Below, piece by piece: positions 20,416 to 55,869 of a DNA stretch of 58,074 bases. Source of the DNA: a virus (lineage: Duplodnaviria; Caudoviricetes); the IMG/VR virus record IMGVR_UViG_3300027734_000080, positions 1-58,074 of that record, one strand, 5' to 3'. A program made the position numbers and the translations under genes. Each line of letters opens with the position of its first letter. The first letter of the stretch is position 1. The notes beneath the pieces are model-generated. The model was not told the DNA's origin, did not search any database, and saw only the letters and a list, made by a program, of their open reading frames with translations.

Positions 20416-20681
20416 CGGCTGCTCCTTTTGTTCTTAGAGGATTTAGAAGGCTTCTTGATTTCTTCAATGAAGTCAAACTCCAGCTCTTCCTCTTCTGTCT
20501 TGCCCCAGTTCTCTATAAAGAGGTCTACGTCCTTTTGGAAGGTTTCGTATTCTTCTTTTTGAGCCAATCCTTGGGCAACAATATCTTCCATCAGATCGCT
20601 GCACTCCCTGTAGGGAAGCTCTTGCAGAGCAAAGATGATTTTTTTAAAGTCTTCCGCAGACACTTCAAGTTTGAATTTCAT
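20412..20681 (-). CDS. Hypothetical protein
   Basis: ALQELPY motif, coupled ORF. Confidence 0.65.
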   Translation of the reverse strand: MKFKLEVSAEDFKKIIFALQELPYRECSDLMEDIVAQGLAQKEEYETFQKDVDLFIENWGKTEEEELEFDFIEEIKKPSKSSKNKRSSR

Positions 20682-21313
20682 AATATTTCCTTTCCAAGTT
20701 GATTTTTAGCGCGAATTTTTTCCCAATATGCTTTTTTTGCCACACTTATTTTTTCCCTATTTTCTGGACGGCGCATTGGATTTTCATCCCCATACATAAC
20801 AGGAAGGCGACTTCCCGTATTAAGGGCAATATGAGCCAAACGCATCTTTTCTTTTGCTTCATCAGAATGTTTCCACTTTGATGGATCTCCAGAACGAGGT
20901 CGTCCTTTTCTTATTGCGCTCATTTTTGCTTTAGTTTCTTCAGATGCTTTTCTTCCAGTTCTAGCTTTATCAAGTGCTTCAACAACATTTTTGGGCCTAG
21001 GTTTTCCTTTTAAATAATTTGTCCACTCTCTTTTTGCAATTTCATAAAGCCTACTGTTGTAGACTCTTATTTGATTTTTGTTTGACTGTTTCATCATTTT
21101 TGCTGCTTGCCACATGCCGCCGCCATAGATGTGGGCAAGAAGCATGTGGGCAACAAAATGTTCTCTTCCAGTTAGCCAAATCAAATTACTAGATTGATTT
21201 GTTCCTCCTTTTGACTTTGGAACAATGTGATGTTTTTCATAATAGACATTATTTTCACGAGGCCTCAATAATGCCTTCTGAATTAACAACTGATATTGAT
21301 GTTGGTGGTTCAT
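20678..21313 (-). CDS. HNH homing endonuclease with NUMOD3 motifs
   Basis: EKHHIVPKSKGGTN..NLIWLT.REHFVAH; SEETKAKMS and HSDEAKEKM. Confidence 0.9.
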   Translation of the reverse strand: MNHQHQYQLLIQKALLRPRENNVYYEKHHIVPKSKGGTNQSSNLIWLTGREHFVAHMLLAHIYGGGMWQAAKMMKQSNKNQIRVYNSRLYEIAKREWTNYLKGKPRPKNVVEALDKARTGRKASEETKAKMSAIRKGRPRSGDPSKWKHSDEAKEKMRLAHIALNTGSRLPVMYGDENPMRRPENREKISVAKKAYWEKIRAKNQLGKEIL

Positions 21314-22079
21314 AATTATTTTTCAATTTCCAAAAATTTAGTAAAGAAAAAAACATGAGCCAATGTTTCTGAAGATCTTCCTCAGACCATTTTTTAATTA
21401 CAACAAGACCAGGTTCTTTTACAGAAATAAAAACATTGGCGCATACCGCATTTGGCATGCCCAATCCTACACGATAAGCAGCTAATTGCATAGCGTTATC
21501 TGGATAGGCTTGCACTTCTTCGGGGTCTGTAAACTCTTTGGTCTTAAGGTCAATCACCACGTTTTCTGCGTGTAGATCTACCTTGCCCCCAAAGCCATAC
21601 TTGCTGGCAAAAGACTTCTCAGACTTAAAGTCTAAGCGGCCAAAGGTCTCTTCTATGCTCTGCGCTACGCCCACTTGGTACTCAGCCATGTTGGCCAGCA
21701 TGATGCCCTCATAGAAGGTCTCAATAGCCGCATGGATCTCGCTACCACGCTCCGCGGCCTGTTTGGCGTGTTCTTTAGAATCTTTGACAATCCTCTGAAC
21801 AAAGCTTTCTTCAGGCTCGCCATCAATCTTGGGCAAGGTCAAAGCCGCCAGCAACATCTGATTGAGCTTCCAAGCCTCTAGGCCTGGGCTAGCCGCACAT
21901 TTGATGATGGTGGTCACCGAGGGTAGCAAGTTGAGCTTGCGAGCGTCACGCAGCGTTGTAGAGCGTTGCTCGCCACTCTTTGCCGTCACATAGTAAGCTG
22001 GGGTGCCATCTATCTTATACCAATGCCCAGATTCCTCTGCTCTAGTGATGATCATGCCGCCTCCTGGGTTTTCCTTCAA
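21255..22079 (-). CDS. PD-(D/E)XK exonuclease
   Basis: PSVTTI, RGSEIH, GGKVDL...IDLKT, QLAAY. Confidence 0.85.
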   Translation of the reverse strand: MKENPGGGMIITRAEESGHWYKIDGTPAYYVTAKSGEQRSTTLRDARKLNLLPSVTTIIKCAASPGLEAWKLNQMLLAALTLPKIDGEPEESFVQRIVKDSKEHAKQAAERGSEIHAAIETFYEGIMLANMAEYQVGVAQSIEETFGRLDFKSEKSFASKYGFGGKVDLHAENVVIDLKTKEFTDPEEVQAYPDNAMQLAAYRVGLGMPNAVCANVFISVKEPGLVVIKKWSEEDLQKHWLMFFSLLNFWKLKNNYEPPTSISVVNSEGIIEAS

Positions 22080-22090
22080 AGAATAAACAT

Positions 22091-22564
22091 TTACTTGTAA
22101 ATTGGAGTATTGCTTCTATGCCATTCGTCGTGACATTTTTTGCATAACCAACGTACATCCAATGGTTTTGTGTAATCATCATGATGACCTTCAACTTTTT
22201 TATCTGAATTGCAAATTGAGCAATTGCTTGCTTTAGAAATCAATCCATCACATTTTGCTTTGTTAAAAATAAGATGAGCAGCATATTTCATTGGGTATCT
22301 TTCACGATACGCAATTTGTGATTTTCTTCTTACTATTTTTCCGGCTTCAGTTTTTTGATACCGAATAACAGCTTCAATGCGATGGGGTTGTTTTCCTCGT
22401 TTTCTGTCGTACTCTCTAATTTTTTCTAAATTAACCTCTCTATGTTTTTTTATGCGGCTTTTAACACAAGGAATACAATGGTTAAGATGCCCATCTGACA
22501 TAGAGTGATTTTTATAAAAATCTAAAAGAGGCTTTTCAATGCTACAACTTTTACACACCTTCAT
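22091..22564 (-). CDS. HNH endonuclease with N-terminal Zn ribbon
   Basis: CKSC...CIPC; CSIC...EGHHDDYTKPLDVRWLCKKCH. Confidence 0.85.
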   Translation of the reverse strand: MKVCKSCSIEKPLLDFYKNHSMSDGHLNHCIPCVKSRIKKHREVNLEKIREYDRKRGKQPHRIEAVIRYQKTEAGKIVRRKSQIAYRERYPMKYAAHLIFNKAKCDGLISKASNCSICNSDKKVEGHHDDYTKPLDVRWLCKKCHDEWHRSNTPIYK

Positions 22565-23775: not shown

Positions 23776-23811
23776 CACGTCACTCCTAAAAACCGCCGTA
23801 TCGGCGTGCAT

Positions 23812-23892
23812 GCATTACACCACAATTTAATCAACGGTTAAAATACTTGAGTAAAACTTGGGGTTGTTTTAACTAAAAGTTTGTGTCATACT
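23812..23892. promoter_or_regulatory. Divergent promoter/operator region
   Basis: Rightward TTGTTT(23864)-17-CATACT(23887); operator-like TTAAT-N5-GTTAA (23827-23841) and TTAAC-N5-GTTTG (23869-23883). Confidence 0.55.
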
Positions 23893-23913
23893 GCCGATCT
23901 GAAAGGGACAACT

Positions 23914-24114
23914 ATGACACTGACAGACTACTTTAAAGAAGAGCCACGAGGCGCAAAGAGTGAGATGGCAACCTACTTGGGCATATCCCTGACATGGTTC
24001 AGCCTATTGATCAACGGCAAGCGTAAGGCGTCCCCTAAGCTGGCTTTGGCAATAGAAGAGGCTACCCAAGGGCTGGTCAAGAAGGCTGACTTGCGGCCTG
24101 ATCTTTTTTCGTGA
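23914..24114 (+). CDS. Cro/YdaS-like HTH regulator
   Basis: MATYLGISLTWFSLLINGKR...IEEATQGLV...LRPDLF. Confidence 0.85.
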   Translation: MTLTDYFKEEPRGAKSEMATYLGISLTWFSLLINGKRKASPKLALAIEEATQGLVKKADLRPDLFS

Positions 24115-24128
24115 TAATATGACCCACA

Positions 24129-24235
24129 TGACGCTTGGCGGCGTTTTGCAGTAGGGTTACACATGCTGTCTGCTGGTACTGCACCAGTCCGCCAACATCC
24201 GAAAGGGTGAGACAGCAGGTGTAGCCCTTTTTTTT
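24129..24235 (+). ncRNA. C4/CI-like antisense RNA with upstream target sites, copy 1
   Basis: Long stem 24153-24171/24210-24228 closing two hairpins; loop TACTGCA and linker CCGCCAA are exact complements of upstream TGCAGTA and TTGGCGG; ends in a T run. Confidence 0.7.
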
Positions 24236-24244
24236 GGGGTTTTT

Positions 24245-24910
24245 ATGCATTACTACAAAAGGAACCTTGGCGACTATGCCAAGAAAGCAGGTCGACTGAC
24301 CATGCTCCAGCACGGAGCGTACACGCTTCTTATCGACTCGTGCTATGACCGTGAAGTTTTCCCCACGCTAGAGCAAGCAATTGAATGGACTTGGGCCTCA
24401 ACAGAGGCTGAGGTTGAGGCTGTTAAGTTTGTCCTTAGCAGGTTCTTTGTGCTCGATAAAGAGGGCAGATATGTTCAAGACAGGATACTTGAAGAGCTGC
24501 TCCAGTACCACGCCAAGGCCGACACTAACAAACGAATCGCCAACGAACGTGAAGCGAAGCGTAAAGAAAAGGGAACGAAGCGTACACGAGTCGTGAACGA
24601 ACCGCCACCTAACCAAGAACCAAGAACCATAAACCAAGAACCATCTTCCGCAAAGAAGCCAGCCAAGAAGTGTCCCAAAGACTTTGAGGTTACTGACGAC
24701 ATGAAGACTTGGGTGAAGACTGAATGCCCATTGGTTGATCATGCCGAGCAAACAAAGGTGTTCCGAGATTATGAATTTACCGCGGCTAAGAGTGACTGGG
24801 TTGGTACGTGGCGCAATTGGATGCGTAAAGCCAACCAATTTGCTGCTGAAAAGCAGACTACTGACCGCTACCCCAAAACCTCTTCTGGCATTATTGCGGG
24901 GGCCATATGA
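24245..24910 (+). CDS. Replication protein, DUF1376/YdaU-like
   Basis: MHYYKRNLGDY...HGAYTLLID, NQEP repeat linker, DW..TWRNW C-terminus. Confidence 0.85.
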   Translation: MHYYKRNLGDYAKKAGRLTMLQHGAYTLLIDSCYDREVFPTLEQAIEWTWASTEAEVEAVKFVLSRFFVLDKEGRYVQDRILEELLQYHAKADTNKRIANEREAKRKEKGTKRTRVVNEPPPNQEPRTINQEPSSAKKPAKKCPKDFEVTDDMKTWVKTECPLVDHAEQTKVFRDYEFTAAKSDWVGTWRNWMRKANQFAAEKQTTDRYPKTSSGIIAGAI

Positions 24911-25221
24911 GAGGTCACGACAAAATCATAGCCCTACGCAAGCAGCGCATGATCCCTGAGATTGTATTCCTAAATGACTTTCCGTGCGAGTTACCCAAAG
25001 AATGGTTTGACGTTTGTGTACATAATGACTCCATTACAAACCTTGACTTGAGGTTTTTGATTGGACTGAATGTCAGCATTACTGGAACGGATGAAAAACG
25101 AGTCAAGGCCTTGTACCAAAAGGCTGTGGATAACAAGCCCAAGTTAGTGGTTGCTTCTGTTGTAGACCCAACTAAACCTTCTTGGAAACAAACTGGATGG
25201 ATGGAGAGATATAGTGCCTGA
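24907..25221 (+). CDS. Hypothetical protein
   Basis: LDLRFLIGL motif; coupled between the replication protein and the helicase. Confidence 0.6.
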   Translation: MRGHDKIIALRKQRMIPEIVFLNDFPCELPKEWFDVCVHNDSITNLDLRFLIGLNVSITGTDEKRVKALYQKAVDNKPKLVVASVVDPTKPSWKQTGWMERYSA

Positions 25222-26194
25222 ATTTTTAGATGACAGCATTGACTTTGAAGCATACCTAGAAGATACAGAAGCTCAAACAAAGGTCAAGCCAGCAGCAGAT
25301 TTTGTGGGAGACGCTAAGGCTAGACTGCGACAGAAGCTATCCGAACCTAAAACCTTCCTGCCTTGGCCAAAGACCAATGAGAGCTTTGACTTCCGCCCGT
25401 CTGAGGTGACGGTTTGGGCTGGTCAGAATGGCCACGGCAAGACTGATGTGACTAGCCAGATTGCTCTATCCCTCTTAGGGCAAGGCGAACGTGTCTGCAT
25501 AGCATCGTTTGAGATGAAGCCCCTAGTGACCATTCAGAGGTTGATCCGGATGTTTTCGGGGACAAACCCCAATGCGCCTGAATATCAGACTGACGAGGGC
25601 ATTACTGCCCTAGAAGAGCTTTATGATGATTTTGGCCATTGGACTAAGCAGAAGATGTGGTTGTACGACCAAACAGGAACCGCACGACCCGAAACCGTAC
25701 TGGGTATGGTTAAATATTGTGCACAAGAGCTTAAAATAACTCATGTGTTTATTGACTCTCTTATGAAATGTGTCAAGAATGAAGATGACTACAACGGACA
25801 GAAAGCATTTGTTGACCAACTTTGTGCATTGGCTAAAGACTGCAATATCCACATCCACCTTGTGCATCATCTTAAAAAGCCCGCCAAAGAGACCGACATG
25901 CCCGACAAGCACGACACCAAGGGTAGTGGCTCCATCACCGACCAAGTGGACAACCTATTTATGGTTTGGCGGAATAAGGCTAAGGAAGATGATTACCGAG
26001 CCAAAGGCGTTATGAGCACCCGACAGACCGAGCCTGACTGCTACTTGTTGTGCAGAAAGCAAAGGAACTACGAGGGTGTAGCAGATGGCGAACCTATCGT
26101 AAGCCTATGGAGGCATAGAGATGCTGGGCAATTCATTGCTGAGTACGGCTCTGAGGCGCAGTTTTTTGTGAACTATCCACATCTTCCTTCTTAA
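25214..26194 (+). CDS. DnaB/SF4 replicative helicase
   Basis: Walker A GQNGHGKT, SFEM, VFIDSL, HLVHH, KGSGSITD, RKQR. Confidence 0.9.
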   Translation: MPEFLDDSIDFEAYLEDTEAQTKVKPAADFVGDAKARLRQKLSEPKTFLPWPKTNESFDFRPSEVTVWAGQNGHGKTDVTSQIALSLLGQGERVCIASFEMKPLVTIQRLIRMFSGTNPNAPEYQTDEGITALEELYDDFGHWTKQKMWLYDQTGTARPETVLGMVKYCAQELKITHVFIDSLMKCVKNEDDYNGQKAFVDQLCALAKDCNIHIHLVHHLKKPAKETDMPDKHDTKGSGSITDQVDNLFMVWRNKAKEDDYRAKGVMSTRQTEPDCYLLCRKQRNYEGVADGEPIVSLWRHRDAGQFIAEYGSEAQFFVNYPHLPS

Positions 26195-26200
26195 TTTTAT

Positions 26201-26428
26201 ATGAATGATTTGTTTGATAAATTTCCAGAATGGGTTGGTATGCCTGAATTTGTTCAAGAAAAGAAAGAGCCTTTTAAAGAACTAATTGTGCGCTTTGAGA
26301 CTGAGGCCGATTATTTGGAATTCCAGAGGCTGATTGGACAACAATTAACAGTCAAGACAAAAAGCATCTGGCACCCGTTCAAATCTCATTGGGGACTTGA
26401 AAAAAAAGTCTACAAAGATGCTGCCTAA
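26201..26428 (+). CDS. Small protein coupled to the glycosyltransferase
   Basis: EWVGMPEF...VRFETEADY..F..LIGQ.LT.KTKSIWHP. Confidence 0.65.
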   Translation: MNDLFDKFPEWVGMPEFVQEKKEPFKELIVRFETEADYLEFQRLIGQQLTVKTKSIWHPFKSHWGLEKKVYKDAA

Positions 26429-27305
26429 ATATCCAATTTATATAGTTTCTAAAGGCCGTCATAACAACGGTTTGACAACAAGGGCTTTGCATGAAATGGG
26501 GGTGCCTCATTACGTTGTGGTTGAAGAGCACGAATTAGAGCTTTATCAAAATGGTCGATGTTACGGTGAGCTTTTGGTTATGCCTCAAATTTATAAGGCG
26601 GAATATGAGCTTTGTGACGATCTTGGGTTTAGTAAGAGCACGGGGCCAGGCCCCGCTCGCAACTTCTGCATAGACCATAGTATCTGGAAAGGACATCGTC
26701 GCCATTGGGTAATGGATGACAATATTGATGCTTTCCACTACTTAAACAGGAATGAGAAATTTGAAGTACGTTCCGGTGCAACACTACGCGCTGCCGAGGA
26801 TTTCACGGAGCGGTATTCAAATGTTCCGGTATCTGGATTGAACTATTACAGTTTCTGCAAAAAGAACGATCCCGTTCCGCCATACATCCTTAATACGCGC
26901 ATTTATTCATGTCTTTTGATTGACAATACCTCTGGCTATAGATGGAGAGGTCGATACAATGAGGACACTGATTTATCGCTGCGCGTGTTGAAAGATGGAC
27001 TGTGCACAATCCAGTTCAATGCATTTTTGTGCGGCAAGATCACGACTCAGCGTATGCGGGGCGGCAATAGCGCGGATTTTTATGATGATGAGGGGACACT
27101 GCCCAAAAGCCAAATGTTGGCTGATTTACACCCAGATGTAGCAAAAGTTGTGTTTAAATTTAAGCGCTGGCATCATCATGTTGACTACTCACCATTCAAA
27201 AAAAATAAACTTATCAAAATAAAAAACACCAATAACATGCCAAAAGTTGACAACTATGGTCTTGTTTTGGTGTCAAAAGAAACAAAAATTGCTGAACTGA
27301 TTTAA
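26418..27305 (+). CDS. GT-A glycosyltransferase, TET-associated (TAGT/GREB1-like) type
   Basis: YPIYIVSKGR, GPARNF, HWVMDDNI, RYNEDTDLSLRVL, GGN motifs. Confidence 0.75.
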   Translation: MLPKYPIYIVSKGRHNNGLTTRALHEMGVPHYVVVEEHELELYQNGRCYGELLVMPQIYKAEYELCDDLGFSKSTGPGPARNFCIDHSIWKGHRRHWVMDDNIDAFHYLNRNEKFEVRSGATLRAAEDFTERYSNVPVSGLNYYSFCKKNDPVPPYILNTRIYSCLLIDNTSGYRWRGRYNEDTDLSLRVLKDGLCTIQFNAFLCGKITTQRMRGGNSADFYDDEGTLPKSQMLADLHPDVAKVVFKFKRWHHHVDYSPFKKNKLIKIKNTNNMPKVDNYGLVLVSKETKIAELI

Positions 27306-27313
27306 AAATTTTA

Positions 27314-27571
27314 ATGAAACCCCAGAAAAGAGAAAAAGCTGTACCCACAGAAAGACTCGCACCATCAAATGTCACAATCAGCCATGAAACTATTGAGCAC
27401 ATGAGAGACTGCGAAGCTAGAGAGTGGATACAGCGCTTCAAGAAAAAGAAAGATGAAAGAGGCTTTGGGGGTGCTAGAGAGTGGTGGGACGATATGTCCG
27501 AGAAGATTCGTAAAACCCGCGGGGAGAAGGAAATCCAAGACCTCCGCAACAGAATGAATAAATTCAGATGA
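27314..27571 (+). CDS. Hypothetical protein
   Basis: RDCEAREW motif. Confidence 0.6.
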   Translation: MKPQKREKAVPTERLAPSNVTISHETIEHMRDCEAREWIQRFKKKKDERGFGGAREWWDDMSEKIRKTRGEKEIQDLRNRMNKFR

Positions 27572-27996
27572 CAATGCAAGTATGCTTCACGGTAGAGGGC
27601 GAGCCAAAGGGAAAGGGCAGACCTAGATTTCGCCGTACCAAAAACTTTGTGCAGACCTACACCGACGCTAAAACAAAGTCCTATGAGCAGCAAATCAAAG
27701 ACGCTGCCACTAGAGCTATGGGAGAGTCAGAGCCTCTAGAAACGCCTCTGAGCGTGTTTCTTTACGTTCGGTTCTCTGTGCCCAAGTCTTACTCCAAACA
27801 ACGGACTAAGGACTGTCTATCGGGCAAAGAAAAGCCTACAAAGAAGCCTGACATAGACAACATCGCCAAAAGCCATCTTGACGCTATGAACGGAATTGTC
27901 TACAAAGATGATGTGCAGGTCATATTTATTTCTGTTAAAAAAATCTACTCTTCAATTACTGGGGTAGACATATTGGTTCGAGAGGAACTTGAATGA
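27568..27996 (+). CDS. rusA: RusA Holliday junction resolvase
   Basis: GEPKGKGRPRF, KPDIDNIAK..LDAMN...DDVQV. Confidence 0.92.
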   Translation: MTMQVCFTVEGEPKGKGRPRFRRTKNFVQTYTDAKTKSYEQQIKDAATRAMGESEPLETPLSVFLYVRFSVPKSYSKQRTKDCLSGKEKPTKKPDIDNIAKSHLDAMNGIVYKDDVQVIFISVKKIYSSITGVDILVREELE

Positions 27997-53670: not shown

Positions 53671-55869
53671 ATGGCAAACGTACAAATCTCTCAACTGCCA
53701 GCAGCGGGTGCTATTACAGGCACTGAGCTTGTGCCCGTTGTCCAAAATGGCGTAACCGTACAAACCACTACGGGCGCTATTGCTGCCTCGCCTAGCCAGA
53801 CTCAGACTTTCTTGACCAAGAATCTAGAGCCAAGCCTTCCCAATAGTCGTTATTTGTCCACCAATACGGGTTTAGCGATCACGGATGGTGGCGCACAGTC
53901 TTACCTACGTCTTAGCCTCAGCGGGGCCTCTGGGAGCCTAGAATCCGCTTCTACAGGCATGATTGCCAAGACTTCTGGCACTACCGTAGCCTCAAGGACA
54001 CTATCTACCTCTGGTTTGGGCTTAAGCGTCACAAATGGTGATGGAGTCTCAGGTAATCCCACTTTCCAGCTCACGGGTGTTGCCGCAGCGGTGGCGGCTG
54101 CTTCTGGTACTGGAATGCTGGCAATTGTCGGTGGAACCACTATTGCTGGTCGTCAGATCTTGGGAACTGCTAACCAAATAAACGTGGCAAATGGCGATGG
54201 CTCTAATAGCCCTGTAATTTCTATTGTGAGCGATCCCACAATACCTGGCACGGGTGGCATGACCATCCCCAAAGGAACGATTGCACAACAACCTGTTGGC
54301 GTTACTGGACAGATTAGATACAACACCACAAGCGGCCTGTTTGAGGGTTATACAGCAGGAAGCTGGCTTGCTTTTGCTCAAGGCAACGGCGTAACCACAT
54401 TTGATGGCGGAACTACTGGCCTAACCCCAGCACTTCCTACAAACGGCGCTATATCACTTGGTGGTACGTTAGTGGTTGCTAACGGCGGAACTGGCGCTAA
54501 CACTTTAAGCGGTTACCTAAAAGGTAATGGAACATCTGCTGTTACGGGTGTTGCAAGCATCCCAAGCACAGACATTACTGGTTTGGGCACAATGTCCACA
54601 CAGAATGCAAACGCTGTAGCCATTACAGGCGGAACCATTAGCGGATTGTCTGCCCCAATTGCTGTGGCTTCTGGTGGTACGGGCGCTGCTACATTGACTG
54701 GTTACGTTAAAGGAACAGGAACTTCCGCTCTAACCGCCTCCGCAACTATTCCTAACACCGACATTACGGGTTTAGGAACCATGTCTACTCAGAGCGCAAG
54801 CTTTGTGGCCATCTCTGGCGGGGCAATTAACGGAACCACTATAGGCGCAATTACTCCTGCGGCTGGTACGTTTACTACAGTTAACGCTACATCAGGGACA
54901 TTAGGCTCTGTGGCGCTTACTACTGGAACAATTACTACCGCACCATCTGGCGGTAATGATATTGTTAATAAGACCTACGCTGATGCACTTGCTGGCGGTC
55001 TTAACTTCCACCAAGCCTGTCGCCTTGCAACTACTGCCGCACTTCCAGCCAACACTTACAACAATGGCGCATTCGGTGTTGGGGCAACCTTAACTGCGAA
55101 TGCTAACGGTGCTCTTAGTGTAGACAGTACGCTAACTGTGGCTGGTAATCGCATACTGATTAAGAATGAGGCAGCCCCAGCCAACAATGGTGTGTACACC
55201 GTTACGCAAGTTGGAACCGCTGGAACTCCCTACATTCTGACTAGGGCAACAGACTTTGATACGCCGGGCACTGGGGTCAACCAAATTGACGCTGGCGATT
55301 TCTTCTTGATTACTGCGGGAACCGCCAACACCAATACGTCTTGGGTTCAACAGACGCCCCTTCCTATTACCGTTGGAATTACATCTATAGTATTTCAGCA
55401 ATTTGGTGCGCCAATTACCTACTCCGCTGGAACTGGTTTAACAGAGTCCCCCTCTTACACGTTTAACATTGGCAACACAGGCGTTACTGCAAACACCTAC
55501 GGCAGTGCAAGCTCTGTACCTCAAGTCATTGTTAATGCTCAAGGACAAATCACAAGCGCATCTAGCGTAGCAATTGCTATTGCGGCATCTCAAATAACAT
55601 CGGGCACTTTGCCTGTAGCCAATGGCGGAACTGGTGCAGCCACCCTTACGGGATACGTCAAAGGTTCGGGAACATCTGCCCTGACGGCTTCAGCCACTAT
55701 TCCAAATACAGATATTTCTGGGCTTGGCACTATGTCAACCCAAAACGCAAGCAGCGTAACAATCACTGGTGGAACGGTTGACGGAACCGTCATTGGAGGC
55801 ACTACCGCAGCCGCAGGTAGCTTTACAACTGTGACCGCTACTGGCGGTATTTCTGGAGGGACGTTCTAA
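53671..55869 (+). CDS. Tail fibre protein
   Basis: ISQLPAA N-terminus, GQIRYN..FEGY, RILIKNE...NGVY...LTRATD, triplicated internal block, ends GGISGGTF. Confidence 0.8.
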   Translation: MANVQISQLPAAGAITGTELVPVVQNGVTVQTTTGAIAASPSQTQTFLTKNLEPSLPNSRYLSTNTGLAITDGGAQSYLRLSLSGASGSLESASTGMIAKTSGTTVASRTLSTSGLGLSVTNGDGVSGNPTFQLTGVAAAVAAASGTGMLAIVGGTTIAGRQILGTANQINVANGDGSNSPVISIVSDPTIPGTGGMTIPKGTIAQQPVGVTGQIRYNTTSGLFEGYTAGSWLAFAQGNGVTTFDGGTTGLTPALPTNGAISLGGTLVVANGGTGANTLSGYLKGNGTSAVTGVASIPSTDITGLGTMSTQNANAVAITGGTISGLSAPIAVASGGTGAATLTGYVKGTGTSALTASATIPNTDITGLGTMSTQSASFVAISGGAINGTTIGAITPAAGTFTTVNATSGTLGSVALTTGTITTAPSGGNDIVNKTYADALAGGLNFHQACRLATTAALPANTYNNGAFGVGATLTANANGALSVDSTLTVAGNRILIKNEAAPANNGVYTVTQVGTAGTPYILTRATDFDTPGTGVNQIDAGDFFLITAGTANTNTSWVQQTPLPITVGITSIVFQQFGAPITYSAGTGLTESPSYTFNIGNTGVTANTYGSASSVPQVIVNAQGQITSASSVAIAIAASQITSGTLPVANGGTGAATLTGYVKGSGTSALTASATIPNTDISGLGTMSTQNASSVTITGGTVDGTVIGGTTAAAGSFTTVTATGGISGGTF

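Follow-up and report, generated by a model that had tools for sequence, protein, structure and literature searches.

We analyzed the whole of virus record IMGVR_UViG_3300027734_000080 (Caudoviricetes; 58,074 bases, rated complete by CheckV and called the window below), focusing on a leader RNA of about 109 nt (24127-24235, plus strand) directly ahead of a replication gene. This leader is made up of a 5′ hairpin, two short sites and a Y-shaped terminator RNA. Our preferred reading, to which we assign a probability of roughly 55%, is that it is a compact, rearranged attenuator of the C4/CI type, in which pairing in cis would act as an antiterminator and the terminated RNA would feed back in trans. 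In P1, P7, P4 and N15, C4/CI RNAs serve as the classic immunity factors of the same-strand "antisense" kind, and they are known almost exclusively from enterobacterial prophages and plasmid-prophages. An earlier interpretation made from the letters alone (the sequence-only reading) had proposed a C4/CI-like switch at this position; all of its strings and positions were exact when the sequence was read again.

The leader is predicted to start at about 24127, just 5′ of hairpin H0 (24131-24144, plus strand, as are all features of the leader), whose stem is ACGC/GCGT and whose loop, together with the first closing base, forms site b1, TTGGCGG (24135-24141). After a spacer of 5 nt follows site a1, TGCAGTA (24147-24153), which is single-stranded and abuts the terminator stem. 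The 5′ strands of the closing stems (24154-24171; P1 24154-24162, P1b 24164-24171) lead into hairpin P2 (24172-24188; GCTGG/CCAGT), which presents in its loop a′, TACTGCA (24177-24183), the exact complement of a1. The 7-nt junction linker b′, CCGCCAA (24189-24195), is complementary to b1, and behind it stands an accessory hairpin, P3, with a GAAA loop (24196-24209), which varies among relatives in length and loop. The 3′ strands of P1b (24210-24217) and P1 (24219-24227) and a run of eight T residues (24228-24235) complete an intrinsic terminator whose stem encloses the entire Y structure. H0 is supported by covariation, and the closing stems and P2 by both the predicted fold and covariation. 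The minimum free energy (MFE) of the 85-nt core is -40.9 kcal/mol (z = -4.9), a stability reached by 0 of 200 shuffles; with the 5′ hairpin included, the fold has -49.3 kcal/mol (z = -3.6). The hairpin architecture seen by the sequence-only reading is thus real, but the "cloverleaf" it described is a three-way junction in the shape of a Y, a long stem with two hairpins. The element is present once in the window.

Evidence for the pairings comes from relatives. The first, found with blastn among cultured and GenBank phages (MW202462, with a duplicate record MW202544), is 90.7% identical over 108 nt; the element alone matches, with flanking genes that differ from those of the window, and the upstream site CTCAGTA and loop TACTGAG amount to a double compensatory change. 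A pattern scan of viral contigs gave at least 120 loci, which together with the window and locus L001 make 122 places; among the matches listed, 114 have both the upstream TTGGCGG and the T-run, two have the T-run without the upstream TTGGCGG, one has TTGGCGG without the T-run, and five have neither. At least 135 elements were collected after all scans. The alignment set consisted of 82 distinct element sequences, and 102 non-identical representatives provided upstream contexts.

We compared each a′ loop with the 16 nt following b1 in the 102 representatives, free of register and counting Watson-Crick or G-U pairs. The cognate loop formed at least six of seven pairs with the upstream site in 100 of the 102 representatives, and all seven in 81, compared with a mean of 4.63 of 7 pairs when foreign loops were set against the same upstream sites. 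In a MAFFT alignment of 82 rows that was fitted to no structure, standard pairs occupied 97.4% of the pair cells, as against 84.5% in shuffles (0 of 500 reached the observed value) and 34-52% with the partners slid. Changes on both sides were seen in 25 of the 43 pairs of this alignment: all seven pairs of a1:a′, three of four in the H0 stem (where 100% of cells are paired), 12 of 17 in P1/P1b (97.6% paired) and three of the four counted stem pairs of P3. The proportion of paired cells is 90.6% for a1:a′, because in about 12 rows, which belong to a second clade, the pairing is offset by one alignment column.

As the letters of b′ were fixed in the first pattern, two further scans were made for other b′ letters, yielding 38 and 36 loci with 1 and 21 true elements, respectively. 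Across the collected elements (at least 135), b1 and b′ are complementary in 134 and fall into three types, namely TTGGCGG/CCGCCAA (113), TTGACGG/CCGTCAA (20) and TTGGAGG/CCTCCGA (1), with one imperfect case. The TTGACGG/CCGTCAA type is found on both backbone clades, and the b1 loop, which is invariant among elements sharing b′, shifts with b′ in the variants. The sole incomplete match of the 135 is in L278 (match 994-1037, with b1 about 40 nt upstream of the element), where TTGGCAG faces CCGTCAA; recombination or decay of this copy may account for the mismatch. G-U pairs are frequent and are tolerated on the plus strand only, which places the signal in plus-strand RNA and not in DNA. A DNA-level explanation, such as an origin or iterons, was ruled out on the same ground. 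Judged by this covariation, a1 pairs with the a′ loop and b1 with the b′ linker in RNA. Covariation between loops and targets was a check that the sequence-only reading had itself put forward, and the result bears out its proposal that the upstream sites pair with the loop and the linker.

The family also offers information on how the leader is transcribed. A -10-like hexamer, defined as at least four of six matches including A2 and T6 and ending 10-21 nt (mostly 11-14) before b1, was present in 99 of the 102 distinct contexts versus 13-24 of 102 in control windows; when at least five of six matches were required, the counts were 82 of 102 versus 1-4. The variants seen include TATGAT, TATAGT and TATAAT, among others. 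Although a simple promoter scan of the window returned no full -35/-10 consensus, this conservation indicates that the leader has its own promoter, the predicted -10 of which is extended in the window (TGaTAATAT, 24112-24120). At the other end of the leader, 133 elements are followed by an open reading frame (ORF); its start codon lies 8-19 nt (mostly 8-14) past the T-run in 130 of them, the start of the other three having been placed at 0 by the ORF caller. Such a distance leaves no room for a second promoter, and expression of the downstream gene therefore requires passage through the terminator. In the window, the stem and U8 end 9 nt before the ATG, with a Shine-Dalgarno sequence, GGGG, at 24236-24239, and are accompanied by a predicted alternative pairing that excludes the stem, as would be expected of an attenuator. 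The downstream ORFs belong to one replication-initiator cluster in 87 of the 133 cases, members of which match replication-initiation and primosomal PHROGs or DUF1376, and one further ORF is a DnaD-like loader. The link to replication is thus conserved although the downstream proteins differ.

Folding predictions for the growing chain are consistent with a switch between two structures. For chains ending at 24194-24215 the predicted MFE structure is a nested fold with both b1:b′ and a1:a′, and for chains from 24218 onward it is H0 together with the Y terminator fold. The Y fold is predicted at full length in 81 of the 82 relatives, and scrambling of a1 removes the a1:a′ helix from the predicted folds of most relatives. 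Since a1 adjoins the foot of P1 and the a′ loop caps P2 at a distance of over 20 bp, the a1:a′ helix is excluded for as long as P1 is closed. A pairing that forms first and excludes the terminator should, in cis, delay the terminator and allow read-through; on this modelling, pairing within the leader probably decides whether transcription continues.

The paired part that varies most is a1/a′, with 0.28 differences per site in a1 and 0.235 in a′, compared with 0.061 in P1 and 0.042 in H0. One identical P1+P1b backbone carries 10 combinations of a1 and a′, at least 21 a′ loop types exist in the family, and the same a′ type was seen before different replication genes. Mean duplex energies were -7.6 kcal/mol for cognate and -2.6 kcal/mol for non-cognate partners; duplex energies were used in place of RNAcofold, which does not model loop-loop contacts and returned 0.0 for every pair of leader and Y RNA. 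The hypervariability of a1/a′ on one backbone, the preference for cognate duplexes and the position of b1 in a loop favor an action in trans. This action and its direction are further suggested by analogy with P4 CI.

In the mechanism that we propose, transcription would start just before H0, which shows b1 in its loop, with a1 next and the Y RNA last. The a1:a′ and b1:b′ helices would form while the 3′ strands are still to be transcribed, and this cis pairing would act as an antiterminator, letting RNA polymerase run into the replication genes. Terminated transcripts would accumulate as stable Y RNA with a′ and b′ exposed, and these would bind a1 and b1 of further leaders of that type as they are being transcribed, block the cis antiterminator and force termination. 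The outcome would be type-specific negative feedback on the replication genes, or exclusion of like phage. A more far-reaching version, which we consider possible but put forward tentatively, is that of an RNA-only feedback and exclusion device contained in a single transcript, with a1/a′ "barcodes" that define incompatibility or immunity groups and with the int-alpA RNA described below as a second, unrelated solution at the same control point. If this is true, a barcode-matched leader RNA would shut off replication genes both in the phage that makes it and in co-infecting phages of the same type, and the groups would exist among phages that carry no integrase or protein repressor.

Several observations weigh against feedback in trans or against parts of the switch. 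The covariation is equally expected from a purely cis-acting switch. When relatives were cut after P3, both contact helices were predicted in 54 of 82, the remainder lacking this structure as their MFE fold. The folds are predicted from thermodynamics throughout, and the barrier of 22 kcal/mol between the two of them, calculated on a nested path, is an upper bound that takes no account of pseudoknotted branch migration. The window contained no second target site beyond chance expectation, and the flanks of 135 loci contained 62 cognate sites, no excess over the 57.0 obtained with foreign loops (the 135 trivial reverse complements being excluded from the count). A stricter pattern applied to 185,579 species genomes gave seven matches, two of which are true elements (L127 and L128), located on short contigs of metagenome-assembled genomes (MAGs) assigned to Betaproteobacteria bacterium and Acidibacter sp. 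Finally, searches of the 58-kb genome for families of tyrosine integrases, serine recombinases and S24 peptidases/repressors came back empty. Given this absence, lysogen immunity is not an obvious setting for the element, and as the only two true copies in species genomes are on MAG contigs, a role in lysogenic immunity is without support.

Two by-products of these searches may be recorded. The window's sole near-perfect additional site resembling b1 plus a1 is at 55311-55328 on the minus strand, where TTGGCGG, four bases and CGCAGTA (one mismatch) run antisense to an ORF of 732 amino acids, which is within chance. The five remaining species-genome matches, among them L126, arose by chance in unrelated DNA and are not elements.

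The rival explanation that we rate highest is a kinetic attenuator that works in cis only, in which a transient antiterminator forms in the same chain, folding and elongation kinetics (RNA polymerase speed, NusA, temperature) set the degree of read-through, and the terminated RNA has no function. It requires nothing beyond the predicted co-transcriptional switch, it accounts for all of the covariation, and it agrees with the negative outcome of the target searches, which covered the window and the flanks of the 135 loci. What it leaves unexplained is the hypervariability of a1 and a′ on otherwise identical backbones and, as a point shared with c4-a1b1, the presentation of b1 by the loop of a hairpin; such display is typical of sites engaged in fast bimolecular pairing. 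We consider this a minority prospect that deserves to be taken seriously. Alternatively, the RNA may be a trans-acting small RNA of the C4 type with its main targets elsewhere, in mRNAs of the host or of rival phages, and a1/b1 may serve processing, self-masking or autoregulation. Canonical C4 indeed acts on a downstream mRNA site while the role of its a1/b1 sites is unclear, and the RNA has a predicted promoter and a terminator of its own, but conserved a2/b2 sites are missing downstream and cognate sites were in no excess in the window or the flanks, the regions to which that count extends (host genomes lie outside it). We therefore regard targets elsewhere as unlikely, and as improbable to a somewhat greater degree we regard an ordinary early terminator that is read through with the help of a phage protein antiterminator, with a1:a′ and b1:b′ merely aiding the folding or processing of the RNA. 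Lambda tR1 is located between cro and the replication genes, and the strong stem with U8 occupies a similar position here, with a Cro-like gene on its 5′ side and replication genes on its 3′ side. This comparison is opposed by the leader's own predicted promoter immediately upstream and by a covarying pairing that is geometrically incompatible with a closed terminator stem; moreover, no antiterminator gene was recognized among the approximately 35 ORFs scanned, a set that leaves most of the others uncovered.

The explanation we find hardest to credit is translational control, in which a′ and b′ would pair with TGCATTA (24246-24252), over the start codon, and with TTGGCGA (24267-24273), as C4 does at icd in phage P1. 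The sequence-only reading had singled out these two near-matches, and they are indeed present in the window, but they are not a feature of the family. Against the 100 nt after the terminator, cognate loops reached 5.64 of 7 and foreign loops 5.61, and an identical ATGCAYTAYTAY gene start is found with many loop types; in many of the other downstream genes, strings of this kind are missing. For these reasons control at the start codon was rejected, and the two strings, which show no covariation with the loop, were discarded as targets. Words resembling TTGGCGG are slightly enriched downstream (21 of 102 versus 7 of 100), which fits the conserved LGD codons. The strings encode conserved MHYY and LGD residues, and the caveat attached to the earlier proposal, that the matches might only reflect the conserved MHYY..LGD protein start, was correct: the resemblance is a coding coincidence.

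By analogy, the element works like C4/CI RNAs, but it is not recognized by the corresponding Rfam models. Nothing in the window reaches the gathering threshold of RF01695 (C4; 45 bits), nor did this model match 23800-24400 at E ≤ 10, give a genome-wide match at E ≤ 0.001 or match any of 14 member loci at E ≤ 1. RF03163 (c4-a1b1) matched neither here nor in the 14 member loci, and no other Rfam family gave a match at gathering or permissive thresholds in the window or in these loci. In positive controls, the C4 model scored phage P1 c4 at 68.8 bits and P4 CI at 74.9 bits, and the c4-a1b1 model located the upstream sites of both phages. Our own covariance model (R1) did not find phages P1 and P4 at E ≤ 1. 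The cmsearch comparison with C4-family models by which the sequence-only reading had suggested checking its assignment thus gave no match at any threshold tried; the C4-like features are the a1/b1 two-site layout, the display of b1 in a hairpin loop and a core made up of the GCUGG/CCAGU hairpin and a YYGYCAA linker.

That core is probably shared with C4/CI, to judge from the letters themselves. A long closing stem surrounds two hairpins in this element as in the c4 RNAs of phages P1 and P7; the stem letters of the a′ hairpin, GCUGG/CCAGU, are identical to those of phage P1 c4; and the hairpin is followed in each case by a 7-nt linker, b′, which reads CUGUCAA in phage P1, uUgCcAA in the C4 consensus and CCGCCAA here, so that a YYGYCAA linker plus a GCUGG/CCAGU stem is common to the element and phage P1. 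In both systems a′ is the variable part that confers specificity. In the C4 systems, a longer transcript is processed by RNase P to a trans-acting RNA of roughly 77 nt. RNase P cuts C4 at the 5′ end of P1, and specificity comes from a′ (PMC5320573). The GGG with which closing stem P1 starts in our main clade fits the GGW start described for C4 in that paper. As in c4-a1b1, b1 is displayed in the loop of an upstream hairpin, but the order and spacing of the sites differ. Further differences concern the order of the hairpins (the short tetraloop hairpin precedes the a′ hairpin in C4 and follows the b′ linker here), the a′ loop (12 nt in the C4 model, 7 nt here) and the 3′ end, which is a CCACC-type tail in C4, where processing involves RNase P, and a U8 terminator here. 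The upstream sites abut the RNA here but are 70-150 nt away in C4/CI, and the targets a2/b2 at the icd ribosome site of phage P1 have no counterpart. As the element fails the C4 model and two layout features, we filed it as a variant and not as a member of the family.

The closest functional parallel is P4 CI. It too is encoded on the same strand in the leader of the operon that it controls and pairs with an upstream complementary site, which lies within a structured region of the a1b1 type. CI RNA is processed from the leader and halts expression of the P4 replication genes through pairing with seqA and seqC, which leads to premature termination (PMC4825925). Control of replication genes by premature termination is thus a likeness between the two systems and, for this kind of RNA, not a new one, since P4 CI exerts it already (PMC4825925). 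In P4, however, the upstream site is about 150 nt away with a separate terminator in between and a downstream seqC is present, whereas here the closing stem is itself the terminator and no downstream site exists. The element shows the two-site logic of C4/CI in a much more compact form: some 120 nt hold the promoter, the target sites, the effector and the terminator.

Attenuation of replication genes by RNA is familiar from plasmids. In pT181 and pIP501, an antisense RNA binds the nascent rep leader and blocks a pre-emptor, whereupon a terminator forms before the replication gene, and this type of attenuation gives negative feedback that depends on copy number. The RNAs of these plasmids come from the opposite strand, whereas here the regulator and its target would be contained in one sense transcript. 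A leader that gives rise either to a short terminated RNA or to a read-through mRNA is also described for IsrK of Gifsy-1 (RF01394), where the mRNA is the trans target of the terminated RNA (PMC4825925). IsrK differs in that it activates translation of a downstream ORF, and the element here has no Rfam match. We found no description of the present variant in the literature on C4, c4-a1b1, P4 CI and int-alpA, of which the supplementary files (e.g., Weinberg 2010) may hold related motifs.

The element is common in uncultivated phages, usually at the entry to the replication module, and its clean covariation and many natural loop variants on one backbone make it suited to the study of an RNA that regulates its own leader. 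Some relatives have homing endonuclease genes or small ORFs inserted ahead of the other downstream genes. A gene for a GIY-YIG or HNH (HNH-AP2) homing endonuclease is the first after the terminator in L109 (2080-2418), L079 (9882-10355), L038 (1249-1656) and L275 (9148-9660). L113 is without the 3′ half of the terminator. In L001, the Cro-like gene and the leader are separated by a small ORF (756-898) that is rich in cysteine and has an N-terminus resembling a signal sequence (MKKLIAVYLAVLASTAWAC...CCFGNNCQTNCF), and codons like those at the C-terminal end of this ORF precede many leaders of the int-alpA type.

The leader appears to be exchangeable as a unit. Close relatives of the replication protein are encoded in 80 loci, of which seven have the element. 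Four near-identical genomes (L133-L136) share the Cro-like gene of the window and encode a replication protein 97-100% identical to its own, but the C4-like cassette is replaced, as in L133 at 1412-1478, by an int-alpA RNA (RF02996; 40.3 bits in L133 versus a threshold of 35.8). RNAs of this type occupy the same place in L134-L136, in L143 and in many of L137-L212, and an int-alpA-like leader with a -10-like box upstream was found in at least 47 of 78 DUF1376 loci. These sequences cease to match the window within the -10 box and match it again from the ribosome site, so that the exchangeable cassette extends from promoter to terminator. The int-alpA motif, for which a limited literature search returned no functional study, thereby gains a first functional setting as the leader of phage replication genes.

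In the window, the gene preceding the leader encodes a Cro/YdaS-like helix-turn-helix protein (23914-24114, plus strand; PF15943, E = 1.4e-10; phrog_35, transcriptional repressor), the stop codon of which overlaps the TG of the extended -10. The leader is followed by a DUF1376/primosomal-type replication gene (24245-24910, plus strand, with its ATG at 24245; PF07120, E = 5.5e-19; phrog_3992, E = 1.6e-34), an ORF of 104 amino acids and a DnaB-like helicase gene (25214-26194). These Pfam and PHROG matches confirm the placement of the element on a replication operon that had been proposed from the sequence. A terminator-like hairpin with a T-run lies at 24083-24109, within the 3′ end of the Cro-like gene and just 5′ of the leader -10, and may separate cro transcription from the leader promoter. 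No tRNA or tmRNA was detected in the window, and a scan of the proteins of the leftward early operon recognized no repressor-like gene adjoining the Cro-like gene. This leftward operon (minus strand; 20678-21313 and 22091-22564) encodes a homing endonuclease of the HNH/NUMOD3 type, an endonuclease VII-like protein and, at 21255-22079, a PD-(D/E)XK exonuclease. In the rightward direction, the early operon includes a gene for a TET-associated glycosyltransferase (26397-27305; PF20691, E = 5.4e-48; phrog_842, glucosyltransferase), followed by RusA (27568-27996), and the presence of this predicted enzyme suggests that the DNA of the phage is hypermodified.

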